Shown one piece after another: positions 6,434 through 40,963 of a DNA stretch of 40,963 nt. This DNA is from a virus: the IMG/VR virus record IMGVR_UViG_3300029105_000019. One strand, 5' to 3'. Positions within the stretch are counted from its first letter, which is position 1. Every line of letters starts with the position of its first letter. The notes under the pieces were generated by a model. The model had not been told where the DNA came from. It was given only the letters and a program-made list of their open reading frames with translations, and ran no database searches. The translations under genes and the position numbers were made by a program.

Positions 6434-6435
6434 AT

Positions 6436-6512
6436 GCCGCTATAGCTCAATCTGGCAGAGCCGCCGTCTTGTAATCGGCAGGTCGTAGGTTCAAATCCTA
6501 CTGGCGGCACCA
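6436..6512 (+). tRNA. tRNA-Thr (anticodon UGU), CCA encoded
   Basis: Manual cloverleaf. Acceptor is gccgcta/tggcggc. D arm is gctc-aatctggca-gagc. Anticodon arm is gccgt-CTTGTAA-tcggc with a T-T mismatch at 31-39. Variable loop is aggtc. T arm is gtagg-ttcaaat-cctac. Discriminator is A followed by CCA. Confidence 0.85.
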
Positions 6513-6587
6513 CACCGGCAGCACGTCCGGCAAAATAACCTGATCGCCAAGCATGGCAGCCCAAGCAAGGGCAGAAAGGACACACAC

Positions 6588-7175: not shown

Positions 7176-7178
7176 CCT

Positions 7179-8078: not shown

Positions 8079-8099
8079 CCTGCAAGGAGGTGACCCCGC

Positions 8100-10585: not shown

Positions 10586-13309
10586 TTGATGGCAACGCTG
10601 GGCCTGGACACCTCGGCCTATGAGCGGGGCATCGAGCAGGCCAGAAAAGAGACGCAAAGCGCCGCAAATTCGCTGAACCGCAGCGCAAACACCGCCGGGA
10701 GCGGCGTTGCAGGAATGGCAAGCCAGTTTGCAGCAGCCAGCGCAAAAGCCAACATCCTTGCAGGTATGCTTGCCTCGCTTGGGACAAAAGCAGCCGGACT
10801 CGCAAAAAACCTTGTAGAGACAGGCGTTTCTTACAATGCACAGATAGAAAAGTACACCACGGGCTTTACCAATATGCTGGGCAGCGCACAGGCCGCACAG
10901 AAAGCTATGCAGGCTATTCAGGAAGATGCAGCCCGCACACCGTTTGACGTTGCATCTCTGACGCAGGCAAACCAGCTGCTCATCAGCGCAGGCGAAAACG
11001 CTGGCCGTTCTCGTAAGGTCATTATGGCTCTGGGCGATGCTGTATCTGCTACCGGCGGCGGAAACGATGAGCTTTCCCGTATGGCCGCAAACCTTCAGCA
11101 GATCGCCAATGTTGGAAAGGCTAGCGCAGTAGACATTAAGCAGTTTGCTTTTGCTGGAATCAACATCTACCAGGTGCTGGCCGACTACACGGGAAAAACG
11201 GTGGAAGAAGTCCAGAATATGACGGTCAGCTACGACCTGCTGTCTAGCGCGTTAATCGCTGCCAGCGAGGAGGGCGGGCGTTACTATAACGCTATGGACA
11301 CCCAAAGCCAGACCATGAATGGCAGGATTTCCACACTGAAAGATAATGTTTCCCAACTGGCGGGGCTTATGACGGGCGACCTCTCAAGCGGCATCGGCGT
11401 TGTTATTGGCAACCTGAATGATATGGTCGTTGCGGCACAGGAAGCCTACAAACAAGATGGTTGGCTCGGACTTGCTGGTGCCATTACTGGCTTAAGTGGG
11501 CCGATTGATTCCGCAAAACAAAAGTTTAACGAACTTGGGAGCGCCGCGATTACAGCTCTGGACAAAGCAAGTTATTGGCTGAATCATGATGTTCTAAAAA
11601 AGGATGCCTATTCTGACTATGACAGCTACGAAGAGTACAGAGACGCGCAAGACCATCAAAGCAACCGTGACCGCCGCCGACAAGAAGCACTTGCCGGAAA
11701 AGGCATCTATAACAAAAGTTGGACGGAACGGCAGGCTGAAGAAAAGGAAGGAAGCGGCATAACCAGCGGCGGCGACGGCGACGGCGACGGAGGCACGGAC
11801 AAGAACAAGAACAAGACCGTCACAAAGACCGTCCTTTCCGCCCTGACCGACGCGGCCACGTCCTACTCCTCCAACGAGTACGGGCAGATCACGAAATCCG
11901 TCACCGAGCTGACCGAGCACATCAAGGACAGCACCGGCAAGGTCTATGACCAGCTGACCCGCACCACCACCGAGTCCGGCAAGGAGCTGGTGAACGGCGT
12001 GGTGAAGAACTACAAGCTGGTCACCAAAGAAGTCACGGACGAGAACGGCAAGGTCACCACCACGACCCAGAAGACCTATGAGGACGCCTCGAAGTCGCTG
12101 GTCTCGACCCTGACGCAGACCGCGCAGACGCTGAAGAACGGCATCTCCACGACCATCGAGTCGGTGACGAAGAAATACCAGGACAACTCCGAGCACATCG
12201 AGCAGACGGCCACTGAGACCGGCACCCGCATCGTCAACGGGGCGTTGGAGACCTACACGAAGGTCAAGACCCTGATGGACGGCGTGGAGACCGACAGCAA
12301 GGAGACCTCGCAGGCCGTGGTCAGCCAGTACGACACCCTGACCAGCAACTACGGCGCTGCCGCCGAAAGGGTGGCCCAGCTGCAGGCCGCTTACAACGAG
12401 TCCGCAGCCAGCACCGGGGAGTTCTCGGAGCAGACGCTGAAGATCGGTTATCTGCTCACAGAAGAAGAGGAAAAGCTCGACGCTGCAAGCAAAGCGTTAA
12501 AGGAATACCAGAAGAACAACAACCGCGCGAACGCCCAGGCAAATAAGTTCAAGAACATTATCAGTGAGTCCAATGCGGCGTTTTCGGATTTTGGCAGCTC
12601 TCTGACCAGCCTGGGCGAGTTCTTCGACAGCGAGGTATTGCAGAACGCCGGGGACTTTTTCACGACCATCACCAACGGTGTGTCGCAGGCCCTCAATTTT
12701 GCCGCAAGCGTTGAAACGCTGGTCACGACGCTGCAGACCCTGAAGACCGCCATCGAGGCCGTCAATGCAACCGGCGGCATCTCCAGCGTGGTCTCCGGCA
12801 TCGGCAAGCTCATCGGGGCAGGCGGCGCAACGGTTGCTGCGGGAACTGCCGGGGCTGCAACGGCAGGCACTGGGGTGGCCGCACTTGGTCTGTCCATCCC
12901 GCAGATCGGCCTCATCGTGGCCGGTGTGCTGGCGGTGGGTGCTGTGGGCTACGGCATCTACAAGTGGGCAACGAAGGACAAGGACCAGACCGAGAAAAAG
13001 GCCAGCTCCAGCTCAAAGCTGTCCTACAAGGACATTCAGGACGCCTACTGGTACGGCAACGAGCGGGCCTTTGCGGGCTACGACTACCGCACAGACCCTT
13101 ACACCTTCCGCCAGCAGCCCTCGATGAGCGACTACCAGAACAAGATGCAGGCCGAGCTTGCCCGCATCGGCGAGTTCGTTGAAAAGTATCTGCCGGAGAC
13201 CGGCAAGGGCGTCGTCGCGCTGGACGGCGAAGAGGTGGCCCGCATCATCACACCGAGCGTCAACGCAAATCTGGGCCAGCTGGCCGTTTTGAGCGGAAGG
13301 GGGAACTGA
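10586..13309 (+). CDS. Tape measure protein
   Basis: 907 aa, Ala/Gly/Thr-rich and helical, with a C-terminal hydrophobic Gly-rich segment (GAGGATVAAGTAGAATAGTGVAALGL...). Position is canonical. The real start may be the ATG at 10589. Confidence 0.9.
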   Translation: MMATLGLDTSAYERGIEQARKETQSAANSLNRSANTAGSGVAGMASQFAAASAKANILAGMLASLGTKAAGLAKNLVETGVSYNAQIEKYTTGFTNMLGSAQAAQKAMQAIQEDAARTPFDVASLTQANQLLISAGENAGRSRKVIMALGDAVSATGGGNDELSRMAANLQQIANVGKASAVDIKQFAFAGINIYQVLADYTGKTVEEVQNMTVSYDLLSSALIAASEEGGRYYNAMDTQSQTMNGRISTLKDNVSQLAGLMTGDLSSGIGVVIGNLNDMVVAAQEAYKQDGWLGLAGAITGLSGPIDSAKQKFNELGSAAITALDKASYWLNHDVLKKDAYSDYDSYEEYRDAQDHQSNRDRRRQEALAGKGIYNKSWTERQAEEKEGSGITSGGDGDGDGGTDKNKNKTVTKTVLSALTDAATSYSSNEYGQITKSVTELTEHIKDSTGKVYDQLTRTTTESGKELVNGVVKNYKLVTKEVTDENGKVTTTTQKTYEDASKSLVSTLTQTAQTLKNGISTTIESVTKKYQDNSEHIEQTATETGTRIVNGALETYTKVKTLMDGVETDSKETSQAVVSQYDTLTSNYGAAAERVAQLQAAYNESAASTGEFSEQTLKIGYLLTEEEEKLDAASKALKEYQKNNNRANAQANKFKNIISESNAAFSDFGSSLTSLGEFFDSEVLQNAGDFFTTITNGVSQALNFAASVETLVTTLQTLKTAIEAVNATGGISSVVSGIGKLIGAGGATVAAGTAGAATAGTGVAALGLSIPQIGLIVAGVLAVGAVGYGIYKWATKDKDQTEKKASSSSKLSYKDIQDAYWYGNERAFAGYDYRTDPYTFRQQPSMSDYQNKMQAELARIGEFVEKYLPETGKGVVALDGEEVARIITPSVNANLGQLAVLSGRGN

Positions 13310-15458: not shown

Positions 15459-16006
15459 ACTTTTATGATTCGATCCATGCCGCAGCGGAGAAGAACCCTC
15501 GTCTGAATGACGTTCATGTGTTTCTTGAAGGGGAAGAAACATCGCTCCGGTCCCGGTTTGGCTTGTGGCTCAACAAAAGCTATCCACAGATCGGAAAAGC
15601 ACAAACGGAATCGAACCTCGTTTATGTTCCGGCATCTGATAAACCGTTAAATCTGACACGTGCGCTTGACGGTAAGATCCACTACAAACAGCGCACGATC
15701 CAGATGCAGTTTACGGTCATGCAGCCCAAAGCCATGTGGGAAACGATTCGAAGCAAACTGGAAACAGCGCTGCAAGGGCAATGGCTGAAATTTCTTTTTA
15801 CAAAAGACCCATCCTGGACATGGACAGGTCTTTTTGATGTAGAACTCACGCCGGGAGAGTACCAGGCGACCGCGACGATCACAGTAACAGCTTGCCCGTA
15901 TAAAACCAGCGTGACCGCGGCGGCCGGTTCGGATTGGCTGTGGGATACGTTCAACTTTGAAACCGACACAATTTACGACACATCGACGGAGGTGGGCAGA
16001 TTATGA
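15455..16006 (+). CDS. Hypothetical tail/baseplate protein (weak Dit-like resemblance)
   Basis: 183 aa, coupled on both sides (ATGA overlaps) within the tail-tip operon. The functional call is tentative. Confidence 0.45.
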   Translation: MNFYDSIHAAAEKNPRLNDVHVFLEGEETSLRSRFGLWLNKSYPQIGKAQTESNLVYVPASDKPLNLTRALDGKIHYKQRTIQMQFTVMQPKAMWETIRSKLETALQGQWLKFLFTKDPSWTWTGLFDVELTPGEYQATATITVTACPYKTSVTAAAGSDWLWDTFNFETDTIYDTSTEVGRL

Positions 16007-18306
16007 AGCCTTGGAAAGAAGTCATCGACGGAATCCGCAACGCAGTTCTTGGCAAGGAAGTGCGCGAAGATCTCGCCCAGATGGGCGAGTACGTGGAGCA
16101 GTTTGCAAATACGGCAGGCGAAAACATCCAGAAAGCCATCGACCCCACCCTTTCCATCTCCGGCAAGGCGGCGGATGCGGCGAAGGTGGGAGAAGCGGTC
16201 GGTCAGATAAAGGAAGATTTAGTTAGCAATGCAAAAAGGAATCGGGTTAATTTGGGTGCACAAAAAGTTGTACGAGGCAGTTATTATTTGGACAGAGGCT
16301 TTTCTCAAACGGACTATTATACATGGTATTTCGATTTGTCTCCATATAATACGGGTAGGTATATTGTAACAGCGTCTTCTCCTGCATATACGAATTTTGT
16401 GACGTTCCTTGATGAAAGCATGAATACTGTTGGATATGTGAAAAACAGTTCCTCAGACGAAGTTGTCAAATCTGAAATGTATGTCACCAAGCCAGAAAAT
16501 GCAAAATACATCGCAATCACAACGGGTATTCCAACTCTAGACCGGAGAGGACTGTTGGTTAGTGCGTGTATATCAATTGATGAAATTCAAGGAGTCCCAT
16601 TTTATACCAATGATAACGGAGAGGATGCTGATGTATATCCAATAATTATCCTAAAAGGTACAGTCAATAATGGAAAATTGGATTCATCTTACGTCCCAAA
16701 TACCACAAAAAGAGCGGCACTATACTGCCCAAAATCAAATTGTGACATCAAAATCAAATGCGTAGGAAAATTTAATATTTCATACAAAAACGTATGGACT
16801 AAAGAAGCAATGATCCGTAAGGAAGATACTGGGTTTTGGCTATCCATACAAAATGATAAAAATACCGTTTTTGAAGATGTTCCAACTGGCGAAGATATTA
16901 TGATGGTTGCCTTGAGCAAAAAATTGCATGACGTTGTTGCTAATCCGTATTGCATTGATATAACGAATAAATTTACTTACAATCAAGCGTCAAATTCTAC
17001 TATTCCTTTTAAGCCATCGGATATTCGAGTTGTTACAAGTTTATTCAACCCTCCGCAAAAAGAAACGATTATGATTTCTGTTCCTGACACAATTGACGTA
17101 ATAGTCGAAGAATTTATATTAGAAGATGGCGTATACTCTAAGAAATATATGTATAAAGACTTCGCAGCAAATATTAACGTATGGCTTGATGGAACATTTT
17201 ATTGCAATGTGTATCCAGAGAGATATTATACGATTTTAATTCGGAACAAAGATAATTCCCCTATATCTGCGGGCCAAGTGTATAAATATCTCCATGTTTA
17301 TGTGGCTGATAATCGGTTTCATATACCCGAATATTATAGAGATTATATGTCTCAGAAAGAAAAAGAAATTCTTGAAAATATTGATAGCTTTAACAGCTTT
17401 GCATTTGCATTTATCACAGACATTCACATTCAGCGGAACACAAAACATTCACCGGCTCTTATGAGACGAATCAAAACATCGTGTGCGATAAAAACCATTC
17501 TCGGAGGAGGCGACTGGCAGACTGCATGGAACTCAGACGAGCAAGGTAAAAACGCTATTGTCGATGACATGATAGAGATTCGCAATTTGTTCTTTGACTT
17601 GCCAATGATAAAAACTATAGGAAATCATGAATGGGCATACGGTGGAAACAATCAATACAATATTTCCACCGATGAAGCGTATAATATTTATTATCGCTCT
17701 GATGAAGAAAAGGCAAAATCTGAAATTGTGTATCCTGAAAACGGAAATGGGACGTATTTTTATTCCGATGATAAAACCAATAAAATCCGTTATATTTCCG
17801 TGAACTGTATGGATTATGCTGACGACTTGGATATATCCAAATATAACAAAGAGTGGTATTTTTCCATAAGCGAAGAACAAATTGCATGGCTCAAAAGCTC
17901 CTTAAATCTGCCCTCCAATGATTGGTTATGTGTTGTTTTCTCTCATGTGCCACTATGGACATCCTCAGAACGGCCTTTTGGGACAAGTACACTGGTTGTA
18001 AATGCTGAAAAAATTGGGAAAGTCATAAGCGGATACACGTCAAAAACGGAAGAATTCTCTGCACACAAAGGCACACTTGTGTGTTGGCTTGCTGGACATA
18101 CGCACAGAGATGCACTTATTGAGTGGCATGGCACACACATGGTCGTGACTAACGCCGACTGCTTCATCCGAGGAGAAGGCGCGCAGACGAGAACGCTTGG
18201 GACTACAAGCGAACAGTGCTTTGACGTTTTCTGCATTAATAAAAAAGAAAGAAATGTAAAAATTGTACGCATTGGAGCAGGCGAAAATAGAGAATTCGCC
18301 TATTAA
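16003..18306 (+). CDS. Tail fibre / receptor-binding protein with C-terminal calcineurin-like metallophosphoesterase domain
   Basis: The N-terminal ~68 aa are GC-rich and fibre-anchor-like (DPTLSISGKAADAAKVGEAVGQIKEDL). The C-terminal region carries ordered metallophosphoesterase motifs: FITDIH, GGGDW, GNHEW, FSHVP, GHTHRD. Confidence 0.75.
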   Translation: MKPWKEVIDGIRNAVLGKEVREDLAQMGEYVEQFANTAGENIQKAIDPTLSISGKAADAAKVGEAVGQIKEDLVSNAKRNRVNLGAQKVVRGSYYLDRGFSQTDYYTWYFDLSPYNTGRYIVTASSPAYTNFVTFLDESMNTVGYVKNSSSDEVVKSEMYVTKPENAKYIAITTGIPTLDRRGLLVSACISIDEIQGVPFYTNDNGEDADVYPIIILKGTVNNGKLDSSYVPNTTKRAALYCPKSNCDIKIKCVGKFNISYKNVWTKEAMIRKEDTGFWLSIQNDKNTVFEDVPTGEDIMMVALSKKLHDVVANPYCIDITNKFTYNQASNSTIPFKPSDIRVVTSLFNPPQKETIMISVPDTIDVIVEEFILEDGVYSKKYMYKDFAANINVWLDGTFYCNVYPERYYTILIRNKDNSPISAGQVYKYLHVYVADNRFHIPEYYRDYMSQKEKEILENIDSFNSFAFAFITDIHIQRNTKHSPALMRRIKTSCAIKTILGGGDWQTAWNSDEQGKNAIVDDMIEIRNLFFDLPMIKTIGNHEWAYGGNNQYNISTDEAYNIYYRSDEEKAKSEIVYPENGNGTYFYSDDKTNKIRYISVNCMDYADDLDISKYNKEWYFSISEEQIAWLKSSLNLPSNDWLCVVFSHVPLWTSSERPFGTSTLVVNAEKIGKVISGYTSKTEEFSAHKGTLVCWLAGHTHRDALIEWHGTHMVVTNADCFIRGEGAQTRTLGTTSEQCFDVFCINKKERNVKIVRIGAGENREFAY

Positions 18307-18345: not shown

Positions 18346-19011
18346 ATGATGGCAAAAACAATTTTAGACGTTTCCCGCTGGCAGGGAAACATCAACTGGG
18401 ATGCGGTCAAGGCCAGCGGAAAGATTGATGGTGTGATGCTCAAGACGGTATCCACCAACCGCAAACTGAGCAAGCGCAAGGACGGGCTATACATTGACCC
18501 GACCTTTGAACGCAACTATGCCGAGTGCAAGCGGCTGGGGATCCCGGTGGGCGTGTACTACTACACCTACGCCGTCTCGCATACCAGTGCCGATGCAGAG
18601 CTTGCCCTGCTCAAGACTGCGCTGACCGGCAAGACTTTTGAGCTGCCGATCTGCGTGGATGTGGAGGACAACAAGCTCCGCAAGCTTGGCAAGCAGGCGT
18701 TGACCGACCTGACCGCGTATGCGCTGGCGACCATCGAGCGGTGGGGCTTCTATGCCCTGCTCTACACCGGTCTCAACTTCGGGAAGACCCGGCTGTATAT
18801 GGGCGGCGCGGCATTGCGCAAGTACGACGTGTGGGTGGCTGCCTACCGTGATAACAAGCCGACCCCGGCATGGTCTTTTGGGATGTGGCAGTATACCAGC
18901 ACCGCCAGTGTGCCGGGCATCACGGGCAACGCAGACCTTTCCCACGCCTACAAGGACTACGCCGCCATTATCGCGAAAAAGGGGCTGGACCGGCTCCGGG
19001 AGGGCGCATGA
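18346..19011 (+). CDS. Endolysin, glycoside hydrolase family 25 muramidase
   Basis: Has the N-terminal ILDVSRWQGNINWDAVKASG motif, plus GVYYYTYA and ICVDVED, all typical of GH25. 221 aa with no obvious wall-binding domain. Confidence 0.85.
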   Translation: MMAKTILDVSRWQGNINWDAVKASGKIDGVMLKTVSTNRKLSKRKDGLYIDPTFERNYAECKRLGIPVGVYYYTYAVSHTSADAELALLKTALTGKTFELPICVDVEDNKLRKLGKQALTDLTAYALATIERWGFYALLYTGLNFGKTRLYMGGAALRKYDVWVAAYRDNKPTPAWSFGMWQYTSTASVPGITGNADLSHAYKDYAAIIAKKGLDRLREGA

Positions 19012-20249: not shown

Positions 20250-20513
20250 TTACTCGACAATTTTTTTGATCGCACAGTCACGGCAGAAGTCTGGGAAACG
20301 ATTGAGTGCATCCACAAGCTCAGACGGGAACTCATCGTTGTTGTATGGGATACGCACACACAGCTCGCCGCTCATGGTCTTGTAAGGTTTGTAACGGGCC
20401 GGGATTGTGACAGATACATGGTCATAAGAGTCAGTGGCATCAGCTCCCCATGCGTAAACCGGTGTAGCCTCATGGGCTAGTGTGCCATAATGTGCGTACA
20501 AATCAACTGTCAT
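20250..20513 (-). CDS. Hypothetical protein (87 aa)
   Basis: GGAGG lies 8 nt upstream of the ATG at 20513. The track start at 20528 is a TTG that sits inside that RBS. Confidence 0.6.
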   Translation of the reverse strand: MTVDLYAHYGTLAHEATPVYAWGADATDSYDHVSVTIPARYKPYKTMSGELCVRIPYNNDEFPSELVDALNRFPDFCRDCAIKKIVE

Positions 20514-20531
20514 TGTGATGACCTCCAAAGT

Positions 20532-21254
20532 TTATGATTGAGTGTCTTTTAGCTTTTTCAGGGCCTCCCGCAGGGCGTCTTCCCAGCCTTCGTGCTGGTT
20601 GAGATAATCGCCGTAGATAAGTTGTTCAGCTACTTTTCTGGCGGCCATGGCATCCTCAAGCGATAAAAACAGACCAAGGTGATATTGCTTACGCCTAAAG
20701 TTGATGTAAGCTCTGTATCTACCATCTGCAAGTTTTGAAACACCATTTGCTCCGGTCGCAGAATTGCGGTTGACTGTTCCGGACATGCGGCTTTTTGCGG
20801 CAGCCAGGCTAGATCCGTCGGCCCATGCGGTTGTATGGATCGCGTCAGACTTTTGCTTGATATCTCTGTTGCAGGTAGCGCAGTGCTTTATGACGGATAG
20901 GCGGCTGAGTGCGGTCACGGTTTCTTTTTGACAAACGGGGCAAACCGTGCGACAGCGGAGGCTCTCGCTTCCGCTTTTGGGTGGCAAGATTTCGATCACC
21001 GGCCATCCATTGACAATTTTTCCAAGATAGCGTTCTTCTGCTTTTTTTTGATTGTTTTTAGATGTTTTAGGACGCGGAACCGAGGAAGCACAACTTGAGC
21101 ACTGCGAGCTTTTGCCGAGGAGAAGTGAGCTTTTGTAAACATCCTTTACCGCTCCGCATTTGCAACATTTGCAAGTATAGTAGTAAGGCTTGCTGGACGG
21201 GCCGAGGACTTGCCAATGTCCAAAACGCTGGCCCTTTTCAATTTTTACTTTCAT
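20532..21254 (-). CDS. Zinc-ribbon repeats + C-terminal AP2-type DNA-binding domain protein
   Basis: Two CxxC...CxxC clusters are present (CKCCKCG...CSSC; CPVCQ...CATC). The C-terminal GVSKLADGRYRAYINFRRKQYHLGLFLSLEDAMAARKVAE matches the AP2 pattern. Confidence 0.65.
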   Translation of the reverse strand: MKVKIEKGQRFGHWQVLGPSSKPYYYTCKCCKCGAVKDVYKSSLLLGKSSQCSSCASSVPRPKTSKNNQKKAEERYLGKIVNGWPVIEILPPKSGSESLRCRTVCPVCQKETVTALSRLSVIKHCATCNRDIKQKSDAIHTTAWADGSSLAAAKSRMSGTVNRNSATGANGVSKLADGRYRAYINFRRKQYHLGLFLSLEDAMAARKVAEQLIYGDYLNQHEGWEDALREALKKLKDTQS

Positions 21255-21426
21255 CGTTTGCGTCTTTGTTAATCAGATGTGTAATATAGCCGTTGATACT
21301 CATGCCTTTTTGTGCGGCCCGCTCTTTTAATACTGAGAGCTGACCTTTTGGCAGCCGAACCGTCATGCGGTCATAGTTTTCCTTGACGTAGTCGGCAATG
21401 TATTTCTTTTGGTCAAAATTGCTCAT
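21238..21426 (-). CDS. Ribbon-helix-helix (Arc/CopG-like) DNA-binding protein
   Basis: 62 aa. DRMTVRLPKGQLSVLKERAAQKGMSINGYITHLI fits the RHH beta-strand plus two-helix pattern. RBS is gaaggtg. Confidence 0.6.
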   Translation of the reverse strand: MSNFDQKKYIADYVKENYDRMTVRLPKGQLSVLKERAAQKGMSINGYITHLINKDANDESKN

Positions 21427-21754
21427 TTTCTGGTTTCACCTTCTTTCGATTCCGGCATTCTCGGATGCGGATGGCATTGATCGTGGGGTACTCCGCGCCC
21501 TTCATGCCTCGGTCATACGGCATATACGACAGTACGGCATTGCGTCCCAGACCTAATGCTGCCGCGATCTCATCGACACCTTTCCCTTTTTTTGTCATCG
21601 CAGCGATCGAGTCCGCCAGCGGGCTCGACCACGCCCCCGCCGTAATCAGGATCTTTCGTGCCTTTTGCTCACTGATGTTGAGCTGCTTGCTGATTTTTTT
21701 GAGACTCAAACCCTGTTCGCTGAGCCGCACAACGGATGTAAAAAGCGCATCCAT
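21413..21754 (-). CDS. HTH DNA-binding protein (two HTH-like segments)
   Basis: LSEQGLSLKKISKQLNISEQKARKIL and GKGVDEIAAALGLGRNAVLSYM are the two segments. Strong aaggagg RBS. Confidence 0.6.
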   Translation of the reverse strand: MDALFTSVVRLSEQGLSLKKISKQLNISEQKARKILITAGAWSSPLADSIAAMTKKGKGVDEIAAALGLGRNAVLSYMPYDRGMKGAEYPTINAIRIRECRNRKKVKPENEQF

Positions 21755-21766
21755 CTTGATTCCTCC

Positions 21767-22219
21767 TTAAATGTCAAACCCACGGTCGATGTACAACGCA
21801 CGGTCCTTCCCGTGCACATAATTCCAGGATTCGGCAATTTGTGTGTAATAGATTGTCCGACCGCCAATAATCAGCGTTCCGTGAGGGTCAATAGCGCACA
21901 GGGCATCGAGGATGGCCTGCATCTGCTGCCGGTCATATCGAGTTGTCCAGGCATCTAGCAGCTCTTTTTCTACCTTGCTGGCAATTTCGCTCAAGCATGC
22001 AGTCAATTCGGCATCCTCGTTATCCGGTTTCCGCTTCCAAGCTTCCGGATCAAACGCATTGAGCATCCCAATTTGGGACAAGTCAAATGATTCATCGGCA
22101 TCCCAGCGCTGCTGGTAGTCTCCAAGGATGGCATCCAGGCGGCCAAGCCCCATGGATTTGACAGCCAGTTCATACAGAGCGGCATTCGCAGTGATAAATT
22201 CTTTTGCAATGTTAGTCAT
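21767..22219 (-). CDS. Hypothetical acidic protein (150 aa)
   Basis: The ATG at 22219 is preceded by aggagg; the longer track ORF lacks an RBS. Asp/Glu clearly exceed Lys/Arg by eye. Confidence 0.6.
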   Translation of the reverse strand: MTNIAKEFITANAALYELAVKSMGLGRLDAILGDYQQRWDADESFDLSQIGMLNAFDPEAWKRKPDNEDAELTACLSEIASKVEKELLDAWTTRYDRQQMQAILDALCAIDPHGTLIIGGRTIYYTQIAESWNYVHGKDRALYIDRGFDI

Positions 22220-22238
22220 AATGATTTCCTCCTTTTTA

Positions 22239-22661
22239 TTATCGAGCCATGCAATCGCCATAGCAGTAAGTGTGGCAGCGGGGGCACAGGCCACGGATCG
22301 CGGTCACGCTGGGGCGGCGCTCAAAGACGCGGGCAACCTTGGTCATGACTTCGATGGTCTTGGTCTTCTTGTCGTAGCTGCCATCAACGGTCTGGCAGTT
22401 GCTGTACTCGTTTTTGTACTGAGAGTAGTGCATCCGGACGACACCGGCGGCTTTGCGCTTAGTAGCCTCAATTGCTGCACGTTTGGCTGCTTCGGCGGCT
22501 CTTTCGGCAGCATCAGTGGCCTCCTTGATAACCGCCTTTGCCATGTTCCATGCCTTTTTCAAAGCGCTGGCAAAGATCACTTCGGACCCATGACCGGCCT
22601 TCGCATTCCGGAAGATTCGCCAGGCGTTGTTCATGATGTCGTGCAGATTGTACTTTTTCAT
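22239..22661 (-). CDS. Hypothetical protein (140 aa), Cys-rich C-terminus
   Basis: ggagg RBS; first gene downstream of the 22704-22732 promoter. The C-terminus is LCPRCHTYCYGDCMAR. Confidence 0.6.
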   Translation of the reverse strand: MKKYNLHDIMNNAWRIFRNAKAGHGSEVIFASALKKAWNMAKAVIKEATDAAERAAEAAKRAAIEATKRKAAGVVRMHYSQYKNEYSNCQTVDGSYDKKTKTIEVMTKVARVFERRPSVTAIRGLCPRCHTYCYGDCMAR

Positions 22662-22703: not shown

Positions 22704-22732
22704 ATTATAGCACATTTGACATCAAATGTAAA
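22704..22732 (-). promoter_or_regulatory. Sigma-70-type promoter (TTTACA-17 nt-TATAAT) with operator-like inverted repeat in the spacer
   Basis: The minus strand reads TTTACAtttgatgtcaaatgtgcTATAAT. The inverted repeat CATTTGA-ca-TCAAATG occupies 22713-22728, and a further half-site gcgTCAAATG lies at 22741-22750. Confidence 0.65.
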
Positions 22733-22836
22733 TACATTTAGCGTCAAATGCAAAAATTTTTTGTCCTTCGTTGCACCTTCGTTGTCTTTCGCTTTAGCGC
22801 ATTCTGATATGATGGGCGCATAAGGAGGGGAGCGCC

Positions 22837-23214
22837 ATGTGGCACAAGTTCAACCCAAACCCGCGCGGCAGCAGCGTCGGTGACTGTGCAGTGCGAGCCG
22901 TTGCAGCTGCCACCGGGCAAAGCTGGGAGCAGGCGTATGTAGGGCTTGCCATGATGGGCTACGCACTGGGCGACATGCCAAGCGCCAACCGCACATGGGG
23001 CGCGTACCTCCAAAAGCGCGGATTTAAGCGCCGCCTTGTCGAGGCAGACTGCTCCACCTGCTACACCGTGGAGGATTTTGCAAGGGAGTACCCGCGCGGG
23101 ATCTACGTTCTGGGCTGCTCTGGCCACGTTCTGGCTGTTATCAATGGCGAGTGGATGGACAGCTGGGACAGTGGCGCAGAGTGCCCGATATATTACTGGT
23201 ACAAGGAGGACTAA
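22837..23214 (+). CDS. Putative papain-like cysteine peptidase fold protein (125 aa)
   Basis: The N-terminal GDCAVRAVAAATG is a Cys-nucleophile context, and the later GCSGHVLAVINGEWMDSWDS is a His context. Strong aaggagggg RBS. Confidence 0.45.
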   Translation: MWHKFNPNPRGSSVGDCAVRAVAAATGQSWEQAYVGLAMMGYALGDMPSANRTWGAYLQKRGFKRRLVEADCSTCYTVEDFAREYPRGIYVLGCSGHVLAVINGEWMDSWDSGAECPIYYWYKED

Positions 23215-23217
23215 GCG

Positions 23218-23658
23218 ATGCCATACATTCCATACGGATACCAGCCCGGCTATTATGGGCAAGCAATGCCGGATCAGCTTGCACAACTGCGTCAGAACGC
23301 TTACCAGCAGCCCATGATGGGGCAAGCGGCACAGCAGACGCAGGGCACACCGTCTATCATTTGGGTGCAAGGCGAGGAGGGCGCAAAAGCATACATGGTT
23401 GCTGCCGGGAACAGCGTGCTCCTGATGGACAGCGAAAACAGCGCGTTTTACATCAAAAGCACCGATGCAAGCGGGATGCCGCTTCCCCTCCGAGTGTTTG
23501 ACTACAAGGAGCGCACCACAGCCGCAAAAACGCCGCCACAAACGGCGCAGCAGCCAGGCGTGGAGTTTGTCACACGAGCGGAGTTTGATGCTCTGGCAGC
23601 CCGCTGCGCTGCGCTTGAGAAGCAAGAGCCTGCAAAGCCTGAAACGGAGGTCAAATAA
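23218..23658 (+). CDS. Hypothetical protein, P/Q/Y-rich N-terminus (146 aa)
   Basis: aggagg RBS. MPYIPYGYQPGYYGQAMPDQLAQLRQNAYQQPMMGQAAQQTQ is followed by the compact segment IIWVQGEEGAKAYMVAAGNSVLLMDSENSAFYIKSTD. Confidence 0.65.
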   Translation: MPYIPYGYQPGYYGQAMPDQLAQLRQNAYQQPMMGQAAQQTQGTPSIIWVQGEEGAKAYMVAAGNSVLLMDSENSAFYIKSTDASGMPLPLRVFDYKERTTAAKTPPQTAQQPGVEFVTRAEFDALAARCAALEKQEPAKPETEVK

Positions 23659-23660
23659 GT

Positions 23661-23885
23661 ATGGCAAATCCTCTTTTTAATGCACTGGGCGGCGGTATGC
23701 CCGCCATGCCAAACCCTATGGGTCAGTTTGGCCAGATGATGCAGCAGTTCCAGCAGTTCCGTGCAAACTTTCAAGGCGACCCGAAAGCAGAGGTGCAAAA
23801 GCTGCTGCAATCCGGCAAAATGTCGCAAAATCAGCTGAACCAGTTGCAGGCGATGGCGCAGCAGTTTCAGCAGTTCCTCCATTAA
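23661..23885 (+). CDS. Hypothetical Q-rich small protein (74 aa)
   Basis: ggagg RBS; repeated QQFQQF motifs. Confidence 0.6.
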   Translation: MANPLFNALGGGMPAMPNPMGQFGQMMQQFQQFRANFQGDPKAEVQKLLQSGKMSQNQLNQLQAMAQQFQQFLH

Positions 23886-23948
23886 GTCGTAACCGTGGCC
23901 ACGGTTCAAGCATAAAAATCATTCAAAACACACGAAAGGAGTACAAAA

Positions 23949-24716
23949 ATGTCTCTTTCTTCCGATTCTGCGGTTCTGACCATGCCTGTTCAGCCCGCAA
24001 ACACCAACGGCGGCAACGGCTTTGGCTTTGGCAATGATGGCGCATGGTGGATCATCATCTTGTTCCTGTTTGCCTTCTGCGGCGGCTGGGGCGGCAACTG
24101 GGGCGGCAATGGCAACACCGGTGCCGGTGTCGTTGACGGCTACGTCCTGACCTCCGATTTTGCCAACATCGAGCGCAAGATGGATGGTATCAACAACGGC
24201 ATGTGTGATGGCTTTTACCAGCAGGCGCAGCTTGTCAACGGCGTTCAGCAGACCGTGAACAACGGCTTTATGTCCGCAGAGATCAGCCGCGCAAACCAGC
24301 AGGCGGCGTTCATGCAGCAGCTGTTTGCCATGCAGATGCAGCAGCAGGAGTGCTGCTGCGAGAACCGCTCTGCCATTCAGGGCGTCAACTACAATTTGGC
24401 CACCCAGTCCTGCGAGACCCGGAACACGGTGCAGAACACCACCCGTGACATCATCGACAACCAGAACCAGAACGCCCGCGCCATCCTTGACGCCCTGACC
24501 GCACAGCGCATCGAGGCAAAGGACGCAAAGATTGCTGAGCAGGGTCAGCAGCTGTTCGCAGCACAGCTTGCGGCATCTCAGGCAGCCCAGAACGAAACGC
24601 TCAAGGCCTACATGAGCGGTCAGCTGGCCTACTACAATCCGCGCCCCGTGCCCGCATTCCCGGTTCCTGCACCTTACCAGTACGGTAACTGCGGCACCGG
24701 TTGCGGTTGTGCATAA
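23949..24716 (+). CDS. Membrane-anchored Gly-rich / Gln-rich coiled-coil / Cys-rich protein (255 aa)
   Basis: aaggag RBS. GGNGFGFGNDGAWWIIILFLFAFCGGWGGNWGGNGN is a TM segment flanked by Gly-rich repeats. A long N/Q-rich helical region contains QQQECCCEN, and the C-terminus is YGNCGTGCGCA. Confidence 0.7.
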   Translation: MSLSSDSAVLTMPVQPANTNGGNGFGFGNDGAWWIIILFLFAFCGGWGGNWGGNGNTGAGVVDGYVLTSDFANIERKMDGINNGMCDGFYQQAQLVNGVQQTVNNGFMSAEISRANQQAAFMQQLFAMQMQQQECCCENRSAIQGVNYNLATQSCETRNTVQNTTRDIIDNQNQNARAILDALTAQRIEAKDAKIAEQGQQLFAAQLAASQAAQNETLKAYMSGQLAYYNPRPVPAFPVPAPYQYGNCGTGCGCA

Positions 24717-24783
24717 CTCAATAATGGCAACTTGTGCAAAATATGCGCATGTTCAGCCCCAGAGCTGATTTTGCAAACCAGAG

Positions 24784-24810
24784 CGCCGGGGCAGCAGTCC
24801 CGGCGTTTTT
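24784..24810 (+). terminator. Rho-independent terminator inside the accessory cassette
   Basis: Stem cgccggg/cccggcg (7 bp), 8-nt loop, TTTTT. Confidence 0.65.
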
Positions 24811-24830
24811 ATTACGAAAGGAGCATTCAA

Positions 24831-25052
24831 ATGACCGTAACAGACTTGAAGCAGCAGTTTGTTGACCATTTGGCCAGCATGGACAAAAACAAAATGAGCA
24901 TGATGGATCTGAGCGTATACAGTTCAATCGTGCGGACTTTGCTGGACACTGAAAGACCGGACTTTTCGGCTTCCTGCATGGATGTGCTGAAAAACATCTA
25001 TGCAAGTAAAGCGGATGTCTGTGCAGAAAAGGAGGACGCGAATAATGGCTGA
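24831..25052 (+). CDS. Hypothetical protein (73 aa)
   Basis: The ATG at 24831 follows a gaaaggag RBS. The upstream part of the track ORF contains the terminator. Confidence 0.55.
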   Translation: MTVTDLKQQFVDHLASMDKNKMSMMDLSVYSSIVRTLLDTERPDFSASCMDVLKNIYASKADVCAEKEDANNG

Positions 25053-25467
25053 ATTTACCTCTACCACGATCCAGACCGTGGCAGCCGGTCAGAATCTTCC
25101 CTTGACCGAAACCGCTATCAAGGGGTCAAATTGCATCGTGCACCGCGAAGGCGCTGGCAATGTGACGTTGCGTGGACTTACGAGTCAGTGTAAAGCACTG
25201 TTCAAAGTGAGCTTTGGCGGAAACATCGCCATCCCTACTGGCGGCACTGTGGGCTCTATCTCCGTGGCGCTGGCTGTCGGCGGCGAGGCGCTCAACAGCG
25301 CAACCGCAATCGTCACCCCAGCGGCAGTGGATCAGTACAGTAACGTCTTTGCGGCGGTGTTCGTGGAAGTCCCCCGTGGCTGCTGCGTTACTGTGGCGCT
25401 CAAAAACACTAGCACGCAGGCAATCAGCATTGCAAACAGCAATTTGATCGTTGAGCGGGTAGCATAA
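25045..25467 (+). CDS. Hypothetical beta-rich protein, possible BclA-C-terminal/C1q-TNF-like jelly-roll (140 aa)
   Basis: The ATG at 25045 follows aaggagg. The sequence alternates short hydrophobic/polar beta-like segments (VTLRGL..ALFKVSFGGNIAIP..ISVALAVGGEAL..VFAAVFVEVP..VTVALKNTS..ISIANSNLIVERV). The fold call comes from pattern memory only. Confidence 0.4.
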   Translation: MAEFTSTTIQTVAAGQNLPLTETAIKGSNCIVHREGAGNVTLRGLTSQCKALFKVSFGGNIAIPTGGTVGSISVALAVGGEALNSATAIVTPAAVDQYSNVFAAVFVEVPRGCCVTVALKNTSTQAISIANSNLIVERVA

Positions 25468-25483
25468 GAAAGGAGATAAAGTC

Positions 25484-25879
25484 ATGCTGGATAAATTGAA
25501 TCATCTGAAGGATGAGATGTGCGAAGAGCTCATGGAGCTGACCGACAAAAAGAACCGATCCCCTGGCGATGTTGAGATGATCGGCGAGATCGTGGATATC
25601 ATTCTGGACATCCACCGCATCGAGGATTATTGCGAGAGCGGCGAGTACAGCCGTGCGGGCGAGTGGGAAGCTGATATGCACGGCAACTACGGACGTACCG
25701 AAAACTATAGCCGGGGCAACAGCTACGCAAACCGTGGGCGGCATTATGTGCGCGGTCACTACTCGCGCGGCGATGGCCGGGAAAAGATGATCTCGGACAT
25801 CGAGGACATGATGCAGGACGCCACCGGCGCAGAGCGCGATGCCTACAAGCGGGCAGCTGACATCTTACGCAACGCATAA
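25484..25879 (+). CDS. Hypothetical protein with Y/R/G/N-rich central segment (131 aa)
   Basis: gaaaggag RBS. The central segment is HGNYGRTENYSRGNSYANRGRHYVRGHYSRGDGRE. Confidence 0.6.
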   Translation: MLDKLNHLKDEMCEELMELTDKKNRSPGDVEMIGEIVDIILDIHRIEDYCESGEYSRAGEWEADMHGNYGRTENYSRGNSYANRGRHYVRGHYSRGDGREKMISDIEDMMQDATGAERDAYKRAADILRNA

Positions 25880-25896
25880 GAAAGGGGGCGGCAGGC

Positions 25897-26232
25897 ATGG
25901 ACATCGTGGAAATCAATGAACACATCCGAAAGCTAAAATGTGAAGAAACGAACTGGCAGAGCGTGGAAAAGCTTGCCGCCCTCTGCACTGTGCGAAATGA
26001 GTTGAGCGAAGCAGAAAGCCGGGAAAACAGCCCAGCTCCGCAGCCTGAACCAGTTATGCAGATGGAGTATTCCACAAGACCACAAGAACCGCAGAGCGAA
26101 TTTGTAGAGGCTGCAAGCGCTGTGCCGTTCAGCGGTCTGATACGGGTGCTTGACGAGCACATGAATGCCATAAAATTGGTATATCCAAAAGAGTATGAAA
26201 TGGTCATGCAACGCATTCGTTTGCTAGATTAA
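25897..26232 (+). CDS. Hypothetical protein (111 aa)
   Basis: aaaggggg RBS. It is the last gene before the 26292 terminator and attP. Confidence 0.6.
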   Translation: MDIVEINEHIRKLKCEETNWQSVEKLAALCTVRNELSEAESRENSPAPQPEPVMQMEYSTRPQEPQSEFVEAASAVPFSGLIRVLDEHMNAIKLVYPKEYEMVMQRIRLLD

Positions 26233-26352: not shown

Positions 26353-26408
26353 TGGAGCAGGATACGGGACTCGAACCCGCCGCCTACTGCTTGGGAAGCA
26401 GTCGCTAC
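26353..26408 (-). other. attP core: 3' 56 nt of a tRNA-Gly(CCC) gene (anticodon arm to CCA), no 5' half
   Basis: The reverse complement is gtagcg-actgc-TTCCCAA-gcagt-aggcg-gcggg-ttcgagt-cccgt-atcctgc-T-CCA. No matching 5' acceptor strand (gcaggat) or D arm lies upstream. It is adjacent to the integrase gene. Confidence 0.75.
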
Positions 26409-26465
26409 TTGCAATAATAAACGGTATAGCGTTAAATAAATGTGTGGTGCTAGATATTTGCTAGA

Positions 26466-27605
26466 CTATTGATTAAACTTTTCCATTTCCTCTTTGAGAT
26501 ATTTTGCATCGTGTTCGGTATAATAATTGGCAGTTGTGGAAAAATCTGCATGTCCCATAATGGCCTTAACGGCTGTAGGTTCGGCTTTTCCTTCAACCAG
26601 ACGGGTTGTAGCCGTTCTGCGCATTGTGTGAGGAACGGCTTCCTCAGAAATTCCACAGCGTTGCATAAGGATTTTGAATGCTTTTTCAACTCCGCTGTCA
26701 CTGCGCTTTTTACCCTTTCGTTTTGGCGGCAAAAGCAAATCGCTTCCAATGCTATCTACCATCCATCCCGCCAGAATCATTTTTATTGGTTCCAGGACCG
26801 GTATAGTTCGCTCACGTCCAGCATCGCTTTTTTCGCCGCCAATGATATACCCGTTCTGCAAATCAACATCTTCACGCCGAAGCGTTAAAAGTTCATTGAT
26901 ACGCATACCTGTATAATACAAAACCATTGCAATCTGTGCAATTTCGTGCATATCGTCTTGTCGGTCAGATGCAATTTTTTGGATTCTGGCAATTTCGTCT
27001 TTTGAGATCACAACTCTTTTCTTTTTCTTTTCGGATGGAAGTTTTAACTCTTCCGCAAAGTTGTGAGATATTATACCGTTTCCCATAGACCACTTACACA
27101 ACTGGCTAAACAGTTGCTTTTGCTTTTCGCACGATGATCTTGACAGTCCTTCATTCACAAGATTGTCAATGATCCGCTGATAATCTGCGGTTACAAGGTC
27201 CCTGATTTTGAAGTCCCAAAGTGGTGCAGCTTTTTGGTATGCCCATGTATAGCTGTATTTGCCATCGTCGCCAAGGTTCTGATAATGTGTCTCGCTCCAT
27301 TTTTCGTATACGTCCGAAAATGTATACTTGAGCTTTGTTAGGGGCCTGTTTTGCGAGTTGTACGCATCCAGAGCTTGGACAGCTTCACCAGGAGTTTCAT
27401 ATGTTCCAAGCACTTCACGTTTTGCCGTAAGGGCTACGTATGGCCTTGCTCTGGTTCCGCACATTTTGTACACACTGCCGCTGCCCTTTGGGCGGCGGCG
27501 TTTTTTTCTTTGCGCAGGCGGTGCGGTCTCTGGCTGACGCTTGCCACACCATGGGCAGAATGCAGCGCCGTCCGGGATCTCTCGCTTGCATCTGATGCAG
27601 TTCAT
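26466..27605 (-). CDS. int: Tyrosine integrase with N-terminal zinc-ribbon
   Basis: The N-terminus is MNCIRCKREIPDGAAFCPWCG. The C-terminal catalytic region includes ...TGMRINELLTL..., HTMRRTATTRL and GHADFSTTANYY (R..HxxR..Y pattern). Confidence 0.9.
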   Translation of the reverse strand: MNCIRCKREIPDGAAFCPWCGKRQPETAPPAQRKKRRRPKGSGSVYKMCGTRARPYVALTAKREVLGTYETPGEAVQALDAYNSQNRPLTKLKYTFSDVYEKWSETHYQNLGDDGKYSYTWAYQKAAPLWDFKIRDLVTADYQRIIDNLVNEGLSRSSCEKQKQLFSQLCKWSMGNGIISHNFAEELKLPSEKKKKRVVISKDEIARIQKIASDRQDDMHEIAQIAMVLYYTGMRINELLTLRREDVDLQNGYIIGGEKSDAGRERTIPVLEPIKMILAGWMVDSIGSDLLLPPKRKGKKRSDSGVEKAFKILMQRCGISEEAVPHTMRRTATTRLVEGKAEPTAVKAIMGHADFSTTANYYTEHDAKYLKEEMEKFNQ

Positions 27606-39882: not shown

Positions 39883-39958
39883 ATTCCCGTAGCTCAAGTG
39901 ATGGAGCAGCGGTCTCCAAAACCGCAGGCTGCAGGTTTGAGCCCTGCCGGGAATGCCA
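39883..39958 (+). tRNA. tRNA-Trp (anticodon CCA), CCA encoded
   Basis: A perfect 76-nt cloverleaf. Acceptor is attcccg/cgggaat. D arm is gctc-aagtgatg-gagc. Anticodon arm is gcggt-CTCCAAA-accgc. Variable loop is aggct. T arm is gcagg-tttgagc-cctgc. Discriminator is G followed by CCA. Confidence 0.9.
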
Positions 39959-40260: not shown

Positions 40261-40963
40261 ATGGCACGGAGAAAGAAAGCAATGGACTTTTCTTCCCTCG
40301 ACCTAAACCTTGATGCACTGGGAGACTGGGGAGGCGACGAGGAAAAGGCCGAGAAAGAGTTCATCCGCGCTGCAAAGCTGAACCTCTCCCCGGTCACATG
40401 GGACAACGCAGAAGCGGCAGCGGACGCGGTGGACTACGACAAGGATTATTTTGCGCTCCTAAGTGGGCGCTTTATTTTTGGCGACTTCATCGAGGCGCTG
40501 GTCTACAAAAAAGAACTGCTGCCGCACCGGGTATACATCACAACACTGGGCATGAGCCGGGAGAACATAGACAGCATCGTCAACATTGCCGGGTATCTGG
40601 GCTGCGAGCAGCTGAACCTGATCGTGTCCAACTACTTTGTGGCAATGGAGCGGGCAAAGCTGGTGCCCTACATGATCTCCCAGTTTACTGGGCAGCATAT
40701 CAACGTTGCTGTTCTGGCATCGCATTGCAAGATTTGCCTGATCGAGAGTGACAAGGGCAATCTGATCATCATGGGCAGCGCAAACCTGTCCAGTTCCAAC
40801 AACGTGGAGCAGATCATGCTGTTCCATGACGACAAGCTTTTCCGCAAGATCAAGACGCTGCTGAACGGCATCATGAAAAAGTTCTGCATCCTGCGCGGAT
40901 ACAGCGGCAAGACGATTTTTGAGAACAACACCAACAACACCGGAAAAAAGGCTTTTGAAGCCG
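40261..40963 (+). CDS. PLD/HKD-superfamily protein (single HKD-like motif), 5' part; continues at 1..171 (242 aa total)
   Basis: gggaggtg RBS before the ATG at 40261. The motif HCKICLIESDKGNLIIMGSANLSSSN (nt ~40723-40785) resembles HxK(x)4D(x)6GSxN, but with Glu at the Asp position and a longer spacer. The ORF is open to the window end. Confidence 0.7.
   Translation, partial: MARRKKAMDFSSLDLNLDALGDWGGDEEKAEKEFIRAAKLNLSPVTWDNAEAAADAVDYDKDYFALLSGRFIFGDFIEALVYKKELLPHRVYITTLGMSRENIDSIVNIAGYLGCEQLNLIVSNYFVAMERAKLVPYMISQFTGQHINVAVLASHCKICLIESDKGNLIIMGSANLSSSNNVEQIMLFHDDKLFRKIKTLLNGIMKKFCILRGYSGKTIFENNTNNTGKKAFEA
40819..40963 (+). repeat. Terminal overlap, right copy (identical to 1-145)
   Basis: Same comparison as for 1-145. 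Confidence 0.97.

Follow-up and report, generated by a model that had tools for sequence, protein, structure and literature searches.

The cassette and its conservation

We analysed a phage DNA sequence of 40,963 nucleotides (IMG/VR record IMGVR_UViG_3300029105_000019; this whole stretch is called the window hereafter) and concentrated on a gene cassette at positions 22837-26232 that an initial annotation, made from the letters of the sequence, had been unable to assign to any described system. Inspection of open reading frames (ORFs) and ribosome-binding sites bore out the description of eight tightly packed plus-strand ORFs with Shine-Dalgarno sites. The gaps between the genes measure 2-114 nucleotides (nt), o5 and o6 overlap by 8 nt, and the sequences AGGAGG, GGAGG or AAGGAG lie 6-9 nt 5' of the starts, with a weaker AAGGGGG in front of o8. 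The genes and the two terminators of the cassette are as follows.

22837-23214, plus strand: o1, 125 amino acids
23218-23658, plus strand: o2, 146 amino acids
23661-23885, plus strand: o3, 74 amino acids
23949-24716, plus strand: o4, 255 amino acids
24780-24815, plus strand: internal intrinsic terminator separating o4 from o5/o6, with a hairpin at about 24780-24809 followed by UUUUUAUU
24831-25052, plus strand: o5, 73 amino acids from the ATG behind the ribosome-binding site (the mechanical ORF begins at TTG 24732)
25045-25467, plus strand: o6, 140 amino acids (the mechanical ORF begins at 25000)
25484-25879, plus strand: o7, 131 amino acids
25897-26232, plus strand: o8, 111 amino acids
26291-26344: terminal intrinsic terminator, bidirectional, at the end of the operon, which it shields from the integrase gene

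Near relatives were obtained by scanning IMG/VR with o4, which gave 434 confirmed relatives, and the best 80 loci were analysed. The order o1-o2-o3-o4-o6-o7-o8 is the same in these 80, except for a few that are cut at the end of a contig. For distant relatives, GTDB genomes were scanned with an alignment of o6, yielding 65 loci with o6 identities from 75% down to about 35%; their labels are mostly Oscillospiraceae, Lachnospiraceae, Ruminococcus and other Clostridia, and some lie in evidently mis-binned metagenome-assembled genomes. The seven genes o1-o4 and o6-o8 are collinear on a single strand in all 65. Individual genes were detected by iterative hidden Markov model searches on the ORFs of the GTDB loci, counting only loci with sufficient upstream (50) or downstream (56) DNA. 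Among the upstream genes o4 was found in 50/50, o2 in 48/50, o1 in 45/50 and o3 in 44/50 loci; downstream, o7 was detected in 54 and o8 in 23 of the 56. Dulem virus 33, Butyrivibrio phage Ceridwen and Dulem virus 35 share the gene order, and Dulem virus 39 carries a cassette from which o1 is absent. The families thus do co-occur outside the window phage, as the initial annotation had proposed to examine. Ratios of nonsynonymous to synonymous substitution rates (dN/dS) against relatives are 0.03-0.12 and reflect purifying selection. With this ratio and with collinearity in 65 of 65 loci, the module is conserved beyond chance.

The label of an eight-gene cassette needs amendment, as the core comprises seven genes and o5 is an optional insert outside it. 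This acidic, helical protein of 73 amino acids is coded sporadically (18 of 149 loci), and the nucleotide homology of relatives skips its gene, jumping from 24824 to 25044. Contigs bearing the exact proteins of the window number from about 60 to more than 1000 per protein, and more than 8000 clusters at 90% identity surround each of two o6 queries; one o6 homolog is labelled Faecalibacterium prausnitzii by its source. The identity of 98-100% of o4 among the 80 near loci might be taken for extreme constraint on this protein. We rejected that reading, because the loci had been chosen by o4 similarity and because recent recombination is evident (synonymous divergence, dS, of 0.08 versus about 1 for o1 and o6).

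In several genomes foreign, selfish genes are inserted between those of the cassette and leave their order intact. Besides o5 in the window, these are the following.

6641-7090 in Dulem virus 35 (locus L150): XhlA-like "hemolysin" ORF
6662-7213 in Dulem virus 33 (locus L001), opposite strand: annotated endonuclease
24928-25722 in Ceridwen (locus L083): ORF of 265 amino acids

Many distant loci have a short helical ORF of 30-60 amino acids that ends at or overlaps the start of o1 (L001, L091-L095, L104-L107, L110-L117, L127, L131, L144 and L148), and the window has none. A small upstream ORF of several loci was considered as a ninth member of the module and rejected, as no single family could be joined from these ORFs. 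In a bacterial contig of 120 kb, positions 5628-7818 (locus L087) hold a remnant with only o4, o6 and o7. This is probably a decayed prophage end; its neighbours, which were not scanned against family libraries, appear to be non-phage genes.

Transcription signals, genomic position and mobility

The internal and terminal terminators reported by the initial annotation both fold far better than shuffled controls, with -23.1 kcal/mol (z = -5.3) for the internal and -29 kcal/mol (z = -9.9) for the terminal hairpin. The terminal one can be called bidirectional because a run of A precedes its hairpin and a run of U follows it. The internal terminator lies within the block that is kept in relatives and reaches to 24824; therefore, the products of o1-o4 probably outnumber those of o6-o8. 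In front of o1, the nucleotide homology with relatives begins at 22757, and the region up to the start codon has the following elements.

22757-22836, plus strand: upstream control region, within which an AGGAGG ribosome-binding site is located
22767-22784: direct repeats TTCGTTG-N4-TTCGTTG, two 7-nt repeats with a period of 11 nt
22805-22813: extended -10-like element TGnTATGAT (TGaTATGAT in the window)

A comparison of 58 non-identical sequences upstream of the cassette in relatives shows a terminator hairpin, then the strongly conserved element TTTTTTGTCCTTCGTT-N-TTCGTTGTCTC, in which the two direct repeats lie, and then, at a fixed distance of about 23 nt, a TAnnnT hexamer. The unit upstream of the cassette ends, in the Faecalibacterium clade, at an intrinsic terminator. 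A generic sigma-70 consensus scan found no promoter at 22757-22836. A late-promoter motif shared with the late operon was considered and rejected, as the TTCGTTG box is absent there and elsewhere between genes; the window has this pair of repeats only once. From this arrangement we infer a putative activator-dependent promoter specific to the cassette operon. The upstream terminator, the repeat box and the two terminators of the cassette together suggest that it forms its own transcription unit in the Faecalibacterium clade.

The positions of the cassette differ among genomes. In 42 distant loci the cassette is preceded on the same strand by an endolysin-like ORF, and these endolysins are of at least eight unrelated types (GH25, Amidase_2, Amidase_3, M23, glucosaminidase, CHAP, NAGPA and ELLD). 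The genes downstream of distant loci encode tyrosine integrases in 13 cases and serine recombinases in 4, or are early genes, for example those for SNF2 helicases. In locus L141 the cassette stands between a tail fibre gene and the genes for holin and endolysin; in Dulem virus 35 it follows the portal and minor head protein genes and precedes those for scaffold and major capsid protein; in Dulem virus 39 it comes after replication genes and an integrase. Butyrivibrio phage Ceridwen carries the cassette and has no integrase, and is considered virulent by its authors (PMC7372960). The segment 22757-26209 is an island of nucleotide identity common to all 80 IMG/VR loci with flanks that are mostly unshared. 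Among the closest relatives the cassette is constant, and the variable part is the adjoining island between it and the lysis genes. The window phage, Ceridwen and Dulem virus 35 have homologous portal, minor head, scaffold and capsid proteins. Given the varied positions and the shared nucleotide island, the cassette is therefore self-contained as a unit, takes up several hot spots in the genomes of one broad lineage of phages and is not defined by a slot next to attP.

This bears on the claim of the initial annotation that the cassette sits in the classic slot for lysogenic conversion between the lysis genes and attP. Most copies do follow an endolysin gene, but L141, Dulem virus 35 and Dulem virus 39 depart from this, and the slot fails as the defining trait of the module: its G+C content is 0.55, compared with 0.54-0.60 in most late genes, it is constant in close relatives, and it is present in a phage judged virulent. 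In the window itself, the placement between lysis genes and attP/integrase holds with the correction that a minus-strand island of 2.4 kb separates the lysis genes from the cassette. Like morons and lysogenic-conversion cassettes, the module has its own promoter-like element and terminators, is located at hot spots of recombination (downstream of the lysis genes, between minor head and scaffold genes, or beside the integrase) and is shuffled between genomes as a unit. In contrast to morons, which comprise one or two genes, it has seven co-conserved ones, lacks an atypical G+C content or a sporadic presence, is conserved down to 35% identity and occurs also in a probably virulent phage.

The genome of the window is a complete circular phage assembly with a unit of 40,818 bp, positions 1-145 being identical to 40819-40963 (145 nt; circular or terminally redundant). 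Its layout is that of a temperate siphovirus, with packaging, head and tail genes on the plus strand up to about 18.3 kb. Further features of the window are listed here.

6436-6512: complete tRNA-Thr(TGT), between the minor head protein and scaffold genes
18346-19011: GH25 endolysin, followed by small ORFs of the lysis region
20250-22661, minus strand: accessory island of 2.4 kb between the lysis genes and the cassette
20532-21254, in the minus-strand island: AP2/HNH-like protein
21238-21426, in the minus-strand island: ribbon-helix-helix-like ORF, 62 amino acids
21413-21754, in the minus-strand island: helix-turn-helix protein
26356-26412, minus strand: tRNA-Gly(CCC)-like 3' fragment of 57 nt adjoining the integrase gene (22.4 bits with the Rfam tRNA model, below the gathering score)
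26466-27605, minus strand: tyrosine integrase
39883-39958: complete tRNA-Trp(CCA)

The island also encodes two proteins that could not be assigned, and relatives have different minus-strand islands at this position or none. Its near-consensus promoter TTTACA-17-TATAAT (22732-22704) drives the minus-strand genes and coincides in part with two operator-like 22-nt repeats and palindromes (CATTTGACATCAAATG) in the region 22704-22755. The tRNA-Gly(CCC)-like fragment, for which ARAGORN made no tRNA call, is likely the attP core. The site of the tRNA-Thr(TGT) gene is the hot spot that houses the entire cassette in Dulem virus 35. Within the late region, where G+C is otherwise 0.54-0.60, it falls to 0.36-0.40 at 16000-18000, inside a distal tail ORF of 767 amino acids (16003-18306; phrog_7158, unknown function), which suggests that this stretch is a recently acquired receptor-binding part.

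The encoded proteins

A fold class could be assigned for two of the eight proteins, o1 and o6. The AlphaFold2 model of o6, calculated from an alignment of two clades, is an all-beta structure of ten strands with a predicted local distance difference test (pLDDT) score of 86.9. A Foldseek comparison with the PDB gave matches with probability 1.0 and template modelling (TM) scores of 0.70-0.76. The best structures are the C-terminal domain of F-BclA (9h38), BxpB (8d02), ExsF (9h3d), EDA, 4-1BBL and BclA (1wck); 1rj7 is likewise among the matches with TM 0.70-0.76, and the spike knob of phi812 is also matched. In BFVD the best matches are uncharacterised proteins of the same size from uncultured gut phages, some of them labelled "BclA protein", and fibritin whiskers, tail fibres and collagen-like proteins are found as well. 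At the sequence level, o6 gave no Pfam or NCBIfam match at E ≤ 1 (C1q, BclA_C, TNF) and no PDB match at E ≤ 10. Cys49 and Cys113-Cys114 are invariant. Like all aligned homologs, which measure 140-161 amino acids, o6 is globular from the start and has neither a targeting peptide nor a collagen-like Gly-X-Y stalk. The guess of a C1q/BclA-like protein is thus confirmed at the level of the fold, and the model firmly predicts o6 to be a stand-alone jelly-roll domain of the TNF/C1q type with about 140 amino acids.

For o1, AlphaFold2 predicts a compact alpha/beta fold (pLDDT 95.1, alignment of 85 sequences). Cys17, His97 and Asp108 are invariant in an alignment of 40 and in one of 85 homologs. According to DSSP, Cys17 stands at the N-terminus of a helix (17-26), His97 at the start of a strand (97-102), and a second strand covers 105-108. 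Foldseek matches are weak (E 0.05-0.9, TM 0.26-0.42) and include Josephin-2 (E = 0.05), AvrPphB, staphopain, Tae4 and TssM; the top meaningful fold matches are all papain-like. As in papain-like peptidases, among them C39 leader and CHAP/NlpC-P60 peptidases, the cysteine lies at the N-terminus of a helix and the histidine on a beta-strand, and o1 shares with them an invariant Cys-His-Asp set in a domain of about 125 amino acids. C39 double-glycine leader peptidases differ in that o1 has no fused ABC transporter. Names attached to relatives point in the same direction: o1 matches phrog_3754, its relatives in Tsamsa-like Bacillus phages are annotated "putative peptidase", and a mate in its UniRef cluster is named "Peptidase C39-like". 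However, none of the 85 members matches Pfam Peptidase_C39, C39_2, CHAP or NlpC/P60 (C39 at E ≤ 0.1), the o1 of the window has no such match at E ≤ 1, and a profile search of the PDB found no solved peptidase and no C39 structure. Membership in C39 is therefore rejected at the sequence level. The earlier guess of a Cys...His peptidase agrees with the invariant residues and with the papain-like topology, and we regard o1 as a putative cysteine peptidase of the papain-like type, or else as a related enzyme of acyl transfer. The presence of o1 does not mark the cassette, since the gene also occurs alone, for example in Geobacillus phage GBK2, and is found in Lak megaphages and Tsamsa-like Bacillus phages as well.

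Each of the three cassettes without o1 has an ORF with an HExxH motif directly 3' of the last cassette gene.

8044-8364 in locus L100: small HExxH metalloprotease-like ORF (phrog_1233/phrog_87)
7865-8140 in locus L101: the same
11977-12294 in Dulem virus 39 (locus L151): the same

In loci with o1 the HExxH family was found only once, as a distant relative of 266 amino acids at a distance of 1.6 kb. The HExxH ORF may therefore be a non-orthologous replacement of o1, and a peptidase may be integral to the module.

Composition analysis of the other proteins agrees with the low-complexity regions noted before. The protein o2 has a disordered N-terminus rich in Tyr, Pro and Gln, a conserved beta-rich core of about 55 amino acids (consensus IWVQGE.GAK.Y.V....V.L.DS....FYIKS.D.SG.P) and a C-terminal amphipathic helix; it matches phrog_21718 at 2.4e-34, and its family of 2361 clusters at 50% identity consists entirely of proteins of 95-230 amino acids without domain fusions. 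The small helical o3 contains 23% Gln, the repeat QQFQQF twice and a conserved GDP...LL.SG..SQ.Q.NQ; it matches phrog_22984 at 1.8e-22, and one source calls a cluster mate DUF2680. In o7, acidic helical N- and C-terminal parts surround a centre of low complexity rich in Arg, Gly, Tyr and Asn (consensus SYARGRG..RD..GRYS), and its match to phrog_28802 is weak. The least conserved member is o8, an acidic helical protein with a Pro/Gln/Glu-rich linker and no family match.

The largest protein, o4, consists of 11% Gly, 11% Gln and 10% Asn and contains 9 Cys, in line with its earlier description as Gly-, Gln- and Cys-rich; the membrane anchor claimed along with it is borderline, being a single hydrophobic stretch at residues 31-49 (WWIIILFLFAF in the window, WWIILLLLF in the alignment) with a Kyte-Doolittle value of 1.63. 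In 47 homologs a short N-terminal segment is followed by Gly/aromatic "glycine-loop" segments flanking the hydrophobic stretch, a variable Q/N-rich helical region with the motifs CCC(E/D)NR, TRDI and ASQ.AQN, and finally CPVP..PV and a C-terminal GCGCG(C) tail. The protein matches phrog_16490 at 2.5e-45. Marginal matches of the o4 profile in the PDB, namely the coiled coil of CCDC153 and the N-terminus of influenza HA2 (E 0.009-0.1), were rejected as compositional or coiled-coil resemblance and not homology.

No cassette protein could be placed in a known virion, replication or defence family. Scans of all eight proteins with Pfam, NCBIfam and PADLOC gave nothing meaningful (for o2-o4, o7 and o8 nothing at all), and the precomputed Pfam results of near-identical contigs were the same. 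Every significant PHROG match of the cassette is of "unknown function" and none belongs to the head, tail or connector categories. Sequence and profile searches of the PDB with o1, o2, o4, o6 and o7 returned no relatives beyond the marginal ones of o4. Searching the literature by topic and by accession brought up no account of the cassette; the preprint on Mushuviridae deals with another phage of Faecalibacterium. The module is covered neither by curated families or defence models nor by solved relatives or papers, and it cannot be assigned to a described system, as had been stated. We rate it as new as a system on the basis of absent matches together with strong conservation.

A possible envelope assembly and its alternatives

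As a possible function, which we propose tentatively, the region would be an autonomous, horizontally shuffled accessory operon coding for a protease-processed, membrane-tethered structural assembly at the host envelope. For the contacts between the proteins, their location, the substrates of the protease, the timing and the biological effect we suggest the following scheme. With its glycine-loop and hydrophobic N-terminus, o4 would be tethered to the cytoplasmic membrane and project a Q/N-rich helical stalk bearing Cys clusters. A trimer of o6 of the TNF/C1q type might serve as a hub, by analogy to the Bacillus exosporium, where BxpB/ExsF trimers (9h3d) capture short terminal peptides of partner proteins, and o2, o3, o7 and o8 could be low-complexity or helical adaptors. 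As a minimal papain-like Cys-His-Asp enzyme, o1 would mature one or more partners by cleavage. Transcription would start at the cassette's own activator-type promoter, and the internal terminator would lower o6-o8 relative to o1-o4. The most likely site of action of the assembly would be the envelope of the host cell, during lysogeny or in the late phase of infection. The mobility of the cassette and its independent regulation speak for such an accessory envelope function, possibly in lysogens. The suggestion of a surface- or envelope-associated assembly as opposed to DNA metabolism is retained in part: a structural or envelope-type role is the most economical, but the surface location does not follow from proteins without a signal peptide and with a borderline segment in o4.

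Several observations weigh against this proposal. The promoter was deduced solely from conservation and the consensus scan missed it. Structural matches to o1 are weak, the best having E = 0.05 and TM 0.42, and neither C39 nor any other peptidase profile recognises the protein. The link between loss of o1 and a metalloprotease consists of three loci, two of them related, and the HExxH family also includes lysogeny-switch peptidases. No signal peptide was found in any cassette protein and the hydrophobic segment of o4 is short, so that a membrane or envelope location is only putative. Moreover, the cassette always lies in or beside late-gene regions, has the G+C content of late genes and is kept in a probably virulent phage; this setting fits a role in the virion or in the lytic cycle as well as or better than expression in the lysogen.

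The late-gene setting leads to the alternative of a late-expressed virion accessory, in which the proteins would decorate or lengthen the particle as adhesins or as fibres of the head or tail, a trimer of o6 being the distal ligand-binding knob and o1 a maturation protease. We consider this rather unlikely, though a serious competitor. Knobs of the TNF/C1q type are often found at the ends of fibres of phages and other viruses, as the fibre matches of o6 in BFVD and the phi812 spike knob illustrate, but o6 has no N-terminal anchoring or shaft domain, no cassette protein matches a head or tail PHROG, and a hydrophobic glycine-loop protein would be unusual on a particle surface. The cassette is co-oriented with adjoining late genes and embedded among such genes in L141 and Dulem virus 35, has strong ribosome-binding sites and late-gene G+C, is retained in Ceridwen (PMC7372960), and occurs in the window phage, Ceridwen and Dulem virus 35 within one head-module lineage. 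Against this, its position relative to the structural genes changes, in the window an island on the opposite strand and a terminator separate it from the late operon, its promoter box is absent at the late operon, and phages of C. perfringens, which are structural relatives according to the Ceridwen record, are absent from the phage-collection matches of o6 and o2. The frequent neighbourhood of an endolysin gene (upstream on the same strand in 42 loci) could also point to accessory lysis or egress, a "third step" after holin and endolysin, with o4 acting like an i-spanin or fusion protein, o1 as a peptidase of the wall or surface layer, and soluble parts reaching the wall through holin lesions. 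The XhlA-like ORF inside the cassette of Dulem virus 35 and the presence of Tae4, a peptidoglycan amidase, among the fold matches of o1 would agree with this. The architecture of o4 would agree as well: conserved Cys, a hydrophobic segment near the N-terminus and an extended helical region are traits that it has in common with two-component spanins and class I fusion proteins, its C-terminus is Pro-rich, and its gene usually follows that of the endolysin, as spanin genes do. The resemblance of o4 to the fusion-peptide/heptad region of HA2 is only marginal (E about 0.01-0.1), non-significant and probably compositional. Spanins work in diderm hosts with an outer-membrane lipoprotein partner, whereas Oscillospiraceae and Lachnospiraceae are monoderm and offer no outer membrane to fuse; the cassette encodes no lipobox protein, and it is not always beside the lysis genes, from which it is remote in Dulem viruses 35 and 39. 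Seven genes far exceed any lysis accessory known to us, and we know of no lytic counterpart of the TNF-like o6. We therefore judge a role in lysis to be unlikely.

An intracellular module for host takeover, anti-defence or condensate formation appears slightly less probable still. Proteins rich in Q/N, FG/GG or RGG/Y would phase-separate or sequester host factors; o2, o3, o4 and o7 have prion-like, FG-like or RGG/Y-like regions, signal peptides are lacking, and the cassette is a self-contained mobile unit like many counter-defence loci. However, neither PADLOC nor any other family matches it, direct evidence is lacking, and the conserved folded domains (TNF-like hub, papain-like enzyme, o2 core) and Cys clusters indicate a defined assembly. 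Finally, the solved structures that match o6 best are those of exosporium proteins, and the phage might supply BclA/BxpB-like and Cys-rich coat-type proteins that modify the spores of Clostridia. BclA, the C-terminal domain of F-BclA and BxpB/ExsFA have the jelly-roll fold of o6 (TM 0.70-0.76), BxpB/ExsF is likewise a stand-alone domain of about 140 amino acids, and o6 too is coded near a Cys-rich protein (o4, compare ExsY/CotY) and a putative processing enzyme; the Cys-rich o4, the Q/P/Y-rich o2 and the papain-fold enzyme may resemble ExsY/CotY, GerQ and Tgl/YabG. Yet sequence homology to exosporium proteins is undetectable, the collagen-like stalk is missing in o6, o2, o3, o4, o7 and o8 are unrelated to exosporium proteins, and the cassette is encoded by phages. 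Searches of Pfam, NCBIfam and the PDB revealed no sequence-level relation to spore protein families, and no sporulation-type promoter is evident. The only named hosts, F. prausnitzii and Butyrivibrio fibrisolvens, are non-sporulating. We regard spore modification as highly improbable.

More speculatively, the membrane-tethered assembly that we prefer could have a covalent variant, which we regard as a long shot: the module would build a covalently stabilised coat, similar to an exosporium or a cornified envelope, on non-sporulating gut Clostridia or on released virions. In such a coat o4 would be the anchored scaffold, o2 and o3 the Gln-rich substrates, o6 the trimeric hub and o1 a papain-fold protease or transglutaminase. 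If this were true, phages of Faecalibacterium, Butyrivibrio and related bacteria would armour the host cell or the particle in the gut in a previously unknown way.

In conclusion, a seven-gene mobile unit under strong purifying selection represents a large piece of the dark matter of gut phages. It is spread among phages of human and animal gut Clostridia. The hosts include Butyrivibrio of the rumen as well as F. prausnitzii, which produces butyrate and is a key species associated with health. A cultured pair of phage and host is available with Ceridwen on B. fibrisolvens DSM 3071. With a TNF-like hub, a minimal Cys-His-Asp enzyme, a glycine-loop/Cys-rich stalk with an anchor, and adaptors of prion-like character, the parts of the module suggest that phages encode an assembly of a new kind.

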